DNA of 25,811 nucleotides, from IMG/VR virus record IMGVR_UViG_2778261502_000009; one strand, 5' to 3'. The notes beneath the pieces were generated by a model. The model worked only from the letters and a program-made list of their open reading frames with translations, did no database searches and was not told the DNA's origin. This document shows positions 8,892 through 10,447 of this stretch, piece by piece. Source of the stretch: a virus. Taxonomy: Duplodnaviria > Heunggongvirae > Uroviricota > Caudoviricetes. Made by a program: the position numbers and the translations under genes. Position 1 is the first letter of the stretch. Every line of letters starts with the position of its first letter.

Positions 8892-9389
8892 CTACATTTG
8901 ATGCTTTTTATCTCTTAAAGATTCATAGATCTGTTGACAAGTCACTCCTGCGATGTAGCGTTCGTCAGCAATTTCAGCATAAAGCTGAGCTTCTGCTGCA
9001 ATATCTCCGAGCATGTTGGTGAGCATTCCTGCGGCGGTTTTGGTTGTTTTGCCTCTGACGGCAGCGGCAAGATCTGCGGTATGCTTCGCTGCGTCAAGGC
9101 GTATGGCATATTTTTTTGCTTCGGCACGCAACTGGTTAACACTATCAGACAGATAAGCAGCCCTGGCAGAAATTTCAGCAGATTTCTGTTGTGCATCTTT
9201 AACAGCCTCATCACGGGCTATAGTTCGCCCCTGTTCAATTATTCGAGCAGCAAATTGAGCATTTACCTCTTGTGATAATGCGGCAGCATCACGTTCCGCC
9301 CATTTTTTTTGCCATCCTCTGTCGCTCCAGACATTTCCGACGATAAATCCTGACAACACGAGAAAAATCACCATGAATATCTGATTCAC
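8892..9389 (-). CDS. Rz-type i-spanin
   Basis: 165 aa with an N-terminal TM helix ([18 protein letters not shown]) and Ala/Gln/Lys-rich coiled-coil-like remainder; overlaps the endolysin stop; contains an embedded lipoprotein ORF. Confidence 0.8.
8942..9214 (-). CDS. Rz1-type o-spanin, embedded in the +1 frame of Rz
   Basis: ORF lies fully inside Rz. Lipobox LIVLTSC followed by a Pro-rich region ([17 protein letters not shown]). Real start probably ATG 9196 (MHNRN...) or 9211. Confidence 0.65.
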
Positions 9390-9919
9390 TGTTCTATCCC
9401 CCAGCAGGTTAATGCGCTCTCCTGGTCACGACGAATAACCTGACCGTAACAGTTATTTGAACGAATGCGGCAATCGCGTCCGCCATCCTTAATCCACCAG
9501 CGAATCGCTTCGCATGCACCTTTACGATCACCAGCATTCAGCCGCTTATAAAACGTCGACGGGAAACACTTACCGGGGCCAATGTTATAGGGACAAAATG
9601 ACGCGATACCCGCTTTTTGTGGTTCGGTCAGTGGTACTTTAATATTGCGCTCCACCCATGCCAGCGCCTTATCACGCTCAATGGCGTTGACCTGGTCGCA
9701 TTTTTCCTTCGACAGTTTCATATTGGGAAAAACGGTTTTTCCATCCACCACTGTGGCCCCCCGACAGATGGTCCATATGCCAGAACCATCGCGGTATGCC
9801 ATTGTGTGGTTACCTTCTTTTTCGTCCAGAAACTGGTCAAGTATCTGAGGAGCAGATGCGCCAGCACCAATCAGCGCCAGAACGGCAGCCGACAGGCCGT
9901 ATCTGATTTTTGTGTTCAT
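9386..9919 (-). CDS. SAR endolysin (T4-lysozyme-like, GH24)
   Basis: 177 aa. Gly/Ala-rich N-terminal hydrophobic segment [17 protein letters not shown] (SAR-like). E-x8-D-x5-T catalytic spacing in [16 protein letters not shown]. Resembles my recollection of K-12 RrrQ. Confidence 0.8.
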
Positions 9920-10227
9920 ATATATTTATGATGAGGACGCTCGTGCTTATTGGCAGGATTTTCAATCTTAAAGGAGTACTGATGCTGCAGATAAGACTCA
10001 ACTTTTTCTGACAATTTTTCTGCTACTTCCAGGAAGACTTGCCGGACGCTCCTTCTGGCTGCTGCCTCATAAAACTCCAGCGCAGCTCCTTCAACACGGT
10101 CCATGGCGACATCCAGGTCAAAAATTTCACCGTCAAAGCGTTCTTTGTCCTGTAAGGCTACAGTTACCGTAACTTTATTCTCAAAATTACGGACTCCTTT
10201 CACAACCAGTTCATAGTCTTGAGTCAT
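9916..10227 (-). CDS. Hypothetical protein between holin and endolysin (YdfR-like position)
   Basis: 103-aa ORF overlapping the endolysin start by 4 nt. No motif recognised; the YdfR/DUF1327 assignment is from memory of the Qin gene order. Confidence 0.5.
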   Translation of the reverse strand: MTQDYELVVKGVRNFENKVTVTVALQDKERFDGEIFDLDVAMDRVEGAALEFYEAAARRSVRQVFLEVAEKLSEKVESYLQHQYSFKIENPANKHERPHHKYI

Positions 10228-10231
10228 TGGA

Positions 10232-10447
10232 TTACTCTCCTCTCGCAGCCTTACGCCTGTCTTCTTTAATCTTGAAATAAAGATTTGTCAGATACGTCAG
10301 CAGGCCAAAAACCAGGCTACCCAGCACACCGATTGCAGCCCACTGTGACGGAGTTACTTTATCGAGTAACTGCAATGCCCAGAAACCAGCATTACCCGCC
10401 GATGTGCCATAGGCAACACCTGTTGTTAACTTATCCATTGATTTCAT
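10232..10447 (-). CDS. Class II holin (phage 21 S21-type pinholin) with a dual start
   Basis: [71 protein letters not shown] is near-identical to my recollection of S21. ATGs at 10447 and 10438 (MKSM) form the holin/antiholin dual-start pattern. Confidence 0.85.

Follow-up and report, generated by a model that had tools for sequence, protein, structure and literature searches.

The stretch of DNA analysed here, 25,811 nucleotides of a Caudoviricetes prophage and referred to below as the window, carries five intact, full-length genes on its minus strand between positions 8892 and 10447, as read from its open reading frames (Table 1). These two limits are the final base of the i-spanin stop codon and the A of the first pinholin ATG, respectively. 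All the frames that a previous, sequence-only reading had placed here were found on this strand with exactly the same limits, and its statement that the lysis genes are intact agrees with the full length of the five frames and with the motifs found in place. No inactivating change was seen on alignment, either in the catalytic E/D/T residues or in the transmembrane domains of the pinholin. The family scores of all five frames are far beyond chance. In NCBIfam only the lysozyme gave a match, and this was below threshold; the other four proteins matched no model.

Table 1. Genes and regulatory features of the lysis cassette and its upstream region (positions in the window).
Feature	Position	Strand	Basis
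essQ-type pinholin, 71 aa, dual start	10232..10447	-	PF04971, E = 4.4e-34
ydfR (DUF1327), 103 aa	9916..10227	-	PF07041, E = 1.1e-53
rrrQ, SAR-type (signal-anchor-release) lysozyme, 177 aa	9386..9919	-	PF00959, E = 1e-23
rzpQ, i-spanin, 165 aa, GTG start	8892..9389	-	PF10721 DUF2514; PHROG 312, E = 1.7e-57
rzoQ, o-spanin lipoprotein, 84 aa, embedded in rzpQ in another frame	8942..9196	-	PHROG 11621, E = 2.2e-8
sigma-70 promoter-like site TTTATA-16-AATAAT, upstream of the pinholin gene	10573..10600	-	promoter scan
pR'/tR'-like unit just downstream of Q	12222..12320	-	promoter scan and sequence reading
TTTGCA-18-TAAAAT promoter-like site in the pR'/tR'-like unit	12320-12291	-	
hairpin AAAACCCGC-TGATGA-GCGGGTTTT in the pR'/tR'-like unit	12245-12222	-	
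Q-type late antiterminator (ydfT/quuQ homologue)	12351..13103	-	PF03589, E = 4.2e-54

Start and stop codons overlap as ATGA at the ydfR/rrrQ junction (9916-9919) and as GTGA at the rrrQ/rzpQ junction (9386-9389), and the spanin genes are nested as had been described. The pinholin stop codon and the ydfR ATG are separated by a gap of 4 nt (GGAGAG TAA TCCA ATG). The overlapping codons that had been noted around the 103-aa frame are thus found on its lysozyme side but not on its pinholin side. As to the proposed co-translation of this frame with the lysis genes, co-transcription is well supported, whereas translational coupling to rrrQ is a step that we infer.

The pinholin covers 63 of the 64 positions of the PF04971 profile ('Bacteriophage P21 holin S') and also matches PHROG 9876 and PHROG 20 ('holin'). 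Its N-terminus reads MKSM, i.e. the M1/M4 dual start recognised earlier, and a GAGG Shine-Dalgarno sequence stands just before the ATG at 10447; the M1 start gives the antiholin form and the M4 start the holin form. The first membrane helix is weakly hydrophobic in the hydropathy profile. The second (residues 36-54, Kyte-Doolittle value 1.72) has an unchanged G40xxxS44xxxG48 motif, the significance of which is known from established work on phage 21. The holes made by the phage 21 pinholin are too small for a folded enzyme, and they act by freeing SAR endolysins. The EssD protein of the DLP12 prophage has the dual start as well, belongs to the same family and is 94% identical to the pinholin of the window.

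RrrQ could be aligned with the phage 21 lysozyme (3hde) over residues 9-174, and the catalytic triad is present in the Glu-8aa-Asp-5aa-Thr arrangement, with E35, D44 and T50 conserved. Residues 9-27 are Gly/Ala-rich and weakly hydrophobic (Kyte-Doolittle value 1.67), and they align with the SAR region of the phage 21 enzyme, R21. Both the conserved triad and the aligned N-terminus are in line with the intact SAR endolysin suggested earlier. The lysozyme of DLP12 and phage 21 (RrrD/R21) shares the fold and the triad with RrrQ at 33% identity. There is no Shine-Dalgarno sequence before the rrrQ start. In contrast, rzpQ has a GGGGGA Shine-Dalgarno sequence 7 nt before its GTG. Its product has an N-terminal membrane helix (residues 4-22, Kyte-Doolittle value 2.18), and the product of rzoQ has a lipobox (LTS|C23) and, after it, a mature part rich in Pro; the two match PHROG families that are both named 'Rz-like spanin'. 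The embedded two-gene architecture is shared with RzpD/RzoD of DLP12, but the family differs, DUF2514 here versus the lambda Rz type there, and BLASTP of RzpQ and RzoQ against RzpD and RzoD gave only chance-level matches (E = 0.9 and 0.2). In other words, the phage-21-type label that had been given to the whole cassette fits the holin but neither the lysozyme nor the spanins, which have no detectable similarity; judged by these comparisons, the cassette is a mosaic of the Qin type whose likeness to phage 21 is confined to the holin.

The cassette is essQ-ydfR-rrrQ-rzpQ/rzoQ, the standard lysis set of Qin-family lambdoid prophages; this gene set is already known and annotated in E. coli K-12. 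The Qin prophage of K-12 has essQ (b1556), ydfR (b1555), rrrQ (b1554), rzpQ (b1553) and rzoQ (b4689) in identical order and with the same overlaps, rzoQ being annotated at the equal position. The two cassettes differ at 5 of 1556 nt. At the protein level EssQ and RrrQ show no difference, whereas YdfR differs by I103L, RzpQ by A120E and RzoQ by two residues. The gene order and names are also shared with the annotation of CV839-06 and NRG 857C, and in all three genomes the cassette sits between cspB/ynfU and cspI, downstream of Q. The flanks that the window shares with K-12 Qin include cspI, ynfU, cspB, cspF and Q, and the window-to-locus alignments are at 98-99%. At least 80% of the 2-kb stretch is present in 2077 of 5426 complete E. 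coli genomes, and conservation is at least 99% in 1474 records. The set belongs to the textbook annotation of K-12 and recurs in thousands of E. coli genomes. The prophage of the window is fuller than K-12 Qin, with intact integrase, excisionase, exonuclease, replication genes, terminase and portal, and it has a P-loop ATPase where K-12 has relBE. Its head and tail genes are missing, and the portal gene abuts a tail-fibre ORF.

Related arrangements occur in deposited phages. Phage Tritos has EssQ, YdfR and RrrQ identical to those of the window and in the same order. Two temperate coliphages, Tritos and mEp460_ev081, have a DUF1327 gene immediately after an S21-type holin and an RrrQ-type lysozyme further downstream, and the same is true of the Stx-converting phages (phage 86, H-19B, PhiR12). 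The Stx-phage versions of DUF1327 are longer (169-268 aa), with unrelated C-terminal extensions and a core identity of 46-47%, and 320-450 nt with a convergent ORF lie between the DUF1327 gene and R.

An antitermination protein is annotated in CV839-06, NRG 857C and K-12 at the position of the Q-type gene of the window, and this protein would be the driver of late transcription into the cassette. The pR'/tR'-like unit just downstream of it may act as the corresponding promoter and terminator, as the standard layout of lambdoid late operons leads us to infer. Closer to the cassette, sigma-70-like sites near the pinholin gene are not enriched over shuffled sequences. The TTTATA/AATAAT hexamer pair is identical to that given for a constitutive, H-NS-bound RpoD promoter of essQ-rrrQ-ydfP in a genomic SELEX study (PMC3946193).

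The overall best explanation of the locus is, with high probability, a Qin-family lysis cassette whose lysis function is apparently preserved. On the established phage 21 model and the conserved residues, lysis very likely proceeds as in phage 21. Transcription would start either at the late promoter, with Q acting as antiterminator, or at the cassette's own H-NS-bound sigma-70 promoter. The pinholin would build up in the inner membrane, the M1 form delaying the triggering, while the lysozyme would beforehand be exported by Sec and held inactive by its N-terminal SAR helix. On triggering, the first pinholin helix would exit the membrane and the second would form small holes that collapse the membrane potential. 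This depolarisation would release the lysozyme and let it refold to an active muramidase (E35/D44/T50), and as the last step the RzpQ/RzoQ spanin pair would disrupt the outer membrane. That lysis could still be triggered, as previously suggested, is plausible since an intact Q antiterminator lies upstream. A complete and apparently functional lysis module that is kept together with Q means that derepression could kill the host despite the missing head and tail genes. A search of the searchable literature for experimental lysis studies of this cassette (essQ/rrrQ; pinholin and Qin) found none.

Two other readings of the lysis genes can be set against this one. The cassette could be a decaying remnant that is incapable of lysis, as is often assumed for the genes of cryptic prophages. 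The loss of head and tail genes with the abutting portal and tail-fibre frames would fit such decay, as would the near absence of ydfR reads under standard growth (PMC13232886) and the H-NS bound at the promoter region (PMC3946193). Yet all five frames are full length, the catalytic and membrane motifs and Q are intact, the deposited phage Tritos has the same proteins and the conservation across the 1474 records is very high, so we regard decay as highly improbable. The other reading concerns RrrQ, which could be exported by a cleavable signal peptide and act as a secreted endolysin rather than as a membrane-tethered SAR enzyme. Its N-terminal segment closes with small residues (AGASAPQ), which might look like a signal-peptidase site. 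The segment, however, is Gly/Ala-rich with the low hydrophobicity given above, its counterpart on alignment with R21 is the SAR domain, and the enzyme is paired with a pinholin, whose holes exclude folded enzyme, as known from phage 21. A cleaved signal peptide thus appears improbable, and we retain the SAR endolysin within an apparently functional cassette.

The 103-aa frame between holin and endolysin had been described as a gene of unknown function. It is K-12 ydfR (102 of 103 residues identical), and binding of its product to RNase E has been reported (PMC13232886). YdfR matches all 93 positions of the PF07041 profile, has no hydrophobic, membrane or signal segment, and is mildly acidic (pI 5.6). 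The Shine-Dalgarno sequence of the gene, GGAGAG, is contained in the final codons of the pinholin gene, 7 nt upstream of the ydfR start. The AlphaFold2 model (mean pLDDT 81) has three β-strands (residues 5-14, 18-27 and 34-43), a long helix (50-88) and a disordered tail, and a search for close structural relatives of this predicted fold found none. In the family the core is conserved and the C-terminal tails are variable; dN/dS of the core is 0.2-0.4 in most of the divergent pairs. On the basis of these values, the conserved core and the confident fold, YdfR is a real, selected protein.

The DUF1327 family is small, i.e. an exhaustive profile search gave only 81 clusters. Among species-representative genomes it was found in Escherichia only, apart from two metagenome bins labelled Veillonella and Bacillota, which are probably mis-binned E. 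coli phage sequence. Outside Escherichia phages the family is close to absent. It is present in 100 phage records as against 438 with this pinholin type. In all 90 Escherichia loci examined, which collapse to about 7 distinct variants, the DUF1327 gene starts 3-4 nt past the pinholin stop, over a range of 79-100% holin identity and 46-100% YdfR-core identity. Two distant members (71-72 aa) have tail genes, and no holin, as their neighbours; scans of viral contigs with the distant members P0170 and P0174 gave no matches. In DLP12, S is joined straight to R (junction TAATG) with no gene between. The term 'DUF1327' did not occur in the papers that a full-text literature search listed. PADLOC gave no match for YdfR, which lends no support to a defence or anti-defence role.

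Experimental data on the K-12 protein come from a 2026 study in which two-hybrid assays and co-purification linked YdfR to the N-terminal, catalytic half of RNase E (Rne 1-597/598), and residues 1-72, which are identical in the window, were sufficient for the interaction (PMC13232886). This binding is the sole activity reported for the family. We note that this link comes from one study with overproduced, tagged proteins, and that RNA was present in the YdfR eluate but may, according to its authors, have come from a contaminant; overexpression was non-toxic and changed few transcripts (PMC13232886). Partly on these published data and partly by our own interpretation, YdfR is best read as a soluble accessory protein that is made from the late operon, acts in the cytoplasm and is not a lysis effector, a reading to which we give slightly less than an even chance. 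Its gene has the slot and the Shine-Dalgarno sequence that belong to the lysozyme gene in phage 21 and DLP12, and its conserved 72-residue β-β-β-α core is the part for which binding to the catalytic half of RNase E has been reported. Because of this reported binding, the most likely role would be modulation of host RNA decay, or RNA binding, late in infection. In the Qin arrangement, where the ydfR stop overlaps the rrrQ start, translation of ydfR would probably also feed ribosomes to the lysozyme gene.

The data weigh against a direct part in lysis in that YdfR has no membrane or signal segment, DLP12 does without it, DUF1327 is rarer than the pinholin, distant members accompany tail genes and overexpression is non-toxic (PMC13232886). 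The accessory reading, in turn, has against it the pinholin adjacency in all 90 Escherichia loci, which leaves room for a pinholin-related role. Small soluble phage proteins with comparable roles are known: T4 RIII is made with the lysis genes and acts on holin T from the cytoplasm, and Dip of phiKZ binds RNase E; the analogy to YdfR is one of role only. Like RIII, YdfR might be a cytoplasmic regulator of lysis timing that acts on the pinholin, for example by binding its C-terminal tail. The invariant spacing to the S21-type pinholin and the match of a soluble, mildly acidic protein with a basic cytoplasmic tail are what one would expect of such a regulator. Against this, most pinholin cassettes, including that of DLP12, have no DUF1327, the two distant members are not beside holins, the adjacency could reflect co-inheritance of one ancestral insertion, and an interaction between YdfR and EssQ is absent from reports. 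We consider such a regulator unlikely. Still less probable, in our estimate, is that the frame serves solely as a leader whose translation controls lysozyme output, and that its product is functionless. The ATGA overlap and the strong Shine-Dalgarno sequence before ydfR with none before rrrQ would suit a leader, but the 72-residue core is under purifying selection and is kept in variants with the lysozyme gene at a distance of 50-450 nt, in some cases past a convergent gene; moreover, the protein folds confidently in prediction and has a reported specific binding partner (PMC13232886). In these relatives the lysozyme gene at 50-450 nt is preceded by the same leader without a Shine-Dalgarno sequence, CCTGATAAATATCC-ATG, which shows that the coupling to rrrQ is not conserved across the family, and we rejected such coupling as its conserved purpose.

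The accessory reading can be extended into a more speculative one, in which DUF1327/YdfR would link host RNA decay to lysis. It would share its mRNA with the pinholin and be produced in step with it. Through binding to RNase E, at the catalytic half, and possibly to RNA, it might stabilise late or lysis transcripts, or re-route them, and so tune the timing of lysis or the burst size. We give this only a small chance, but if true, the fixed attachment of the gene to the 3' end of the pinholin gene that Escherichia phages show would be functional and not just inherited. The role of YdfR is the residual scientific question of this locus, as ydfR is a named member of the K-12 genes still without a known function and its product belongs to the small number of soluble proteins that are firmly built into a pinholin cassette, now with a reported RNase E interaction. 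Viable phages with the identical gene (Tritos, mEp460 relatives) make this question directly testable. Finally, the Keio ydfR mutant is a match in an envelope-integrity screen (supplement of PMC3879167), and a polar effect of the resistance-cassette promoter reading into rrrQ would be a more likely cause of this phenotype than an envelope role of YdfR.

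Five open reading frames are closely packed on the minus strand between 8892 and 10447 (see table), exactly where the sequence-only reading had placed a phage 21-type lysis cassette; ORF reading and profile searches confirmed it. Between the cassette and the Qin copy of K-12 MG1655 there are 5 differences in 1556 bases. They leave EssQ and RrrQ unchanged; at the protein level the differences are I103L in YdfR, A120E in RzpQ and two changed residues in RzoQ. The window is a Qin-family prophage with the attachment site on the rspB side, fuller than the K-12 copy, in which integrase, excisionase, exonuclease, repressor/cro, replication genes, Q, terminase and portal are present. 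The cassette is therefore the long-annotated Qin lysis module. The 103-aa frame, earlier taken for an anonymous extra gene, is ydfR, one residue different from that of K-12.

Lysis cassette genes and the Q antiterminator gene in the window
Feature	Coordinates	Strand or location	Profile match
Pinholin essQ, 71 aa, starts MKSM	10232-10447	-	Phage 21 holin S family PF04971, E = 4.4e-34
ydfR, 103 aa	9916-10227	-	DUF1327, PF07041, E = 1.1e-53
Lysozyme rrrQ, 177 aa	9386-9919	-	Phage lysozyme PF00959, E = 1e-23
i-spanin rzpQ, 165 aa, GTG start	8892-9389	-	DUF2514, PF10721, E = 1.9e-39; PHROGs 'Rz-like spanin'
o-spanin rzoQ, 84 aa, wholly within the 165-aa gene, other frame	8942-9196	-	PHROGs 'Rz-like spanin'
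Q antiterminator, intact	12351-13103	further upstream of the cassette	PF03589, E = 4e-54

A 2-kb stretch has a match in 4600 of 5426 complete E. coli genomes, at least 80% of it is held by 2077 of the 5426, and 1474 records match it at 99% or more; the features annotated beneath the matches are essD/essQ, ydfR, rrrQ and rzpQ. The cassette is already known and very common, and its first interpretation is largely right. Recent work has started to address what YdfR does.

The phage 21-type reference was the DLP12 cassette of K-12, whose type of lysozyme has solved structures (3hde, 4zpu). The DLP12 pinholin is 94% identical to that of the window, whereas the lysozyme is just 33% identical and the spanins have no detectable similarity to the DLP12 spanins. 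The phage 21 label thus suits the holin and not the other components, and by these comparisons the cassette is a mosaic, in which a 21-type holin is combined with a SAR lysozyme from a distinct subfamily and with spanins of another family. The holin stop and the lysozyme start overlap in DLP12 (TAATG). The window has the same holin 3' end (…GGAGAG TAA), but there the ydfR ATG comes next, after a gap of 4 nt, so that ydfR takes the slot of R in phage 21 together with its Shine-Dalgarno. Overlapping start and stop codons, as proposed for the 103-aa ORF, occur in ydfR only at the junction with rrrQ (ATGA).

The lysis proteins appear intact, as had been suggested: no inactivating change was seen in the catalytic E/D/T residues or the pinholin TM domains. 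RrrQ residues 9-174 align with R21, E35, D44 and T50 are kept, and the weakly hydrophobic, Gly/Ala-rich N-terminus (Kyte-Doolittle 1.67) is aligned to the R21 SAR helix. Both start codons of the pinholin are present, its first helix is weakly hydrophobic, and G40, S44 and G48 are unchanged in the second. The i-spanin carries a membrane helix at its N-terminus, and the o-spanin a lipobox (LTS|C23) followed by a proline-rich mature part. EssQ, YdfR and RrrQ are identical and in the same order in the deposited genome of phage Tritos, and mEp460-type phages have close variants of the cassette, which we read as evidence that viable phages use exactly such a module. By analogy with phage 21, the pinholin would build up, trigger and depolarise the inner membrane; the SAR lysozyme, exported by Sec and tethered to the membrane, would then be freed and activated, and the spanin pair would take away the outer membrane barrier. 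We note that RrrQ has eight cysteines (52, 74, 109, 118, 136, 150, 157 and 172), none of them in the SAR helix, as against four in RrrD/R21.

RrrQ-type lysozyme genes all have a conserved leader lacking a Shine-Dalgarno, (T)CCTGATAAATATCC-ATG (loci L003, L005 and L009-L012). In the Qin type (window 9920-9945, minus strand) it is changed to CCTCATCATAAATATAT-ATG, which strips the in-frame stops, so the ydfR frame stays open through the leader up to the ATGA overlap; the final residues of the 103-aa YdfR are encoded by this altered copy. Here YdfR translation probably also passes ribosomes to rrrQ by way of the ATGA overlap, a Shine-Dalgarno being absent. Such feeding was rejected as the conserved purpose of the family, because the CCTGATAAATATCC-ATG leader is also present where the genes lie far apart.

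No segment of YdfR is hydrophobic (maximum Kyte-Doolittle 0.67) and its pI is 5.6, which makes it a soluble cytoplasmic protein. Its conserved unit is residues 1-72, followed by C-terminal tails of none to more than 200 residues. The core has a dN/dS of 0.2-0.4 in most divergent pairs, a sign of purifying selection. An AlphaFold2 model from a diversified alignment is confident (mean pLDDT 81); in it, three antiparallel strands (5-14, 18-27, 34-43) are followed by a long helix (50-88), and the tail is disordered. The family is small (267 clusters at 90% identity; 81 at 50% among 1.84 billion representatives), and in species-representative genomes it occurs in Escherichia only, bar two probably mis-binned metagenome contigs. 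These bins, labelled Veillonella parvula (L006) and Bacillota bacterium (L009), include contigs with this E. coli phage cassette, their YdfR being 100% and 84% identical, almost certainly binning contamination and not real host range.

Ninety Escherichia loci were checked (80 IMG/VR contigs, 7 species-representative genome loci and 3 phage records), which collapse to about 7 distinct variants. In all 90 the DUF1327 frame starts 3-4 nt past the stop of an S21-type pinholin and an RrrQ-type lysozyme gene lies downstream, overlapping in the Qin type and 50-450 nt off in others, sometimes past a convergent ORF. This invariant adjacency favours the main rival reading, that YdfR is a cytoplasmic regulator of the pinholin, which we nevertheless consider unlikely. 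DUF1327 is found in 100 phage records as against 438 with an S21-type pinholin, DLP12 has no ydfR-like gene, and two distant 71-72-aa members are placed after tape-measure or tail genes (L093, 1229-1765; L094, 446-992), with no nearby holin. YdfR is therefore dispensable for pinholin/SAR lysis, and the domain has no intrinsic link to lysis genes. The two distant proteins consist of the core domain only, and each gene is followed by a convergent 98-99-aa ORF; these ORFs are 66% identical to one another, have no Pfam family and could form a conserved pair with the DUF1327 gene.

Our preferred, still tentative reading is that YdfR is a cytoplasmic accessory protein expressed together with the lysis genes, its conserved core binding RNase E and/or RNA. 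A two-hybrid screen recovered ydfR codons 1-72 three times, an interaction was seen between full-length YdfR and RNase E residues 1-597, Strep-YdfR co-purifies Rne(1-598), and the eluate held DNase-resistant nucleic acid (PMC13232886, 2026); residues 1-72 in the window are identical to K-12. In the same work overexpression did not slow growth and changed few transcripts, and standard growth gave nearly no ydfR reads. An envelope-leakiness screen lists the Keio ydfR mutant (supplement of PMC3879167), where we suspect a polar effect on rrrQ, and a genome-wide screen that looked for antibiotic-survival genes lists ydfR with the streptomycin MIC raised 3-fold (PMC12924614).

Lambdoid late operons usually have a pR'/tR' layout, and the promoter-like site and GC-rich hairpin with U-run after Q (12320-12222) suggest the same here. 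Late transcripts would have to cross cspF (antisense), cspB and the cspB terminator (10919-10900) to reach the cassette. It is flanked by cspI and cspB, both with full-length cspA-type thermoregulator leaders on the minus strand (Rfam RF01766; cspI 8289-8674, 113 bits; cspB 11185-11577, 159 bits). Cold stress raises essQ-ydfR-rrrQ expression (mentioned in PMC13232886), and a cold-induced cspB transcript reading through the terminator could be the source. A promoter-like TTTATA-16-AATAAT lies at 10600-10573, some 125 nt before the ATG of the pinholin gene; the identical hexamer pair is listed from genomic SELEX as the constitutive, H-NS-bound RpoD promoter of essQ-rrrQ-ydfP (PMC3946193).

Elsewhere in the prophage, a 421-aa tail-fibre-like ORF (102-1367; Collar and fibre-repeat domains) comes directly next to the portal gene (1475-3055, PF05136). 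Likeness to the prophages of CV839-06 and NRG 857C, which are fuller, ends at about 1299, within the prohead protease/capsid gene. The genes for head and tail thus seem to have been deleted, and the prophage probably cannot make virions, although its regulatory, replication and lysis modules look intact. A 495-aa ORF (15409-16896, minus strand) takes the place of relBE in K-12 and CV839-06. The NRG 857C annotation calls it 'P-loop ATPase, Sll1717 family'. It has no Pfam match, weakly matches PDC-M28C, a candidate defence model of PADLOC (E = 4e-5), and may be a defence-type cargo gene. As in K-12 Qin, there are a hokD/sok toxin-antitoxin locus (14981-15305, minus strand; Rfam sok 116 bits) and the DicF small RNA (21005-21056, plus strand; 72.5 bits).
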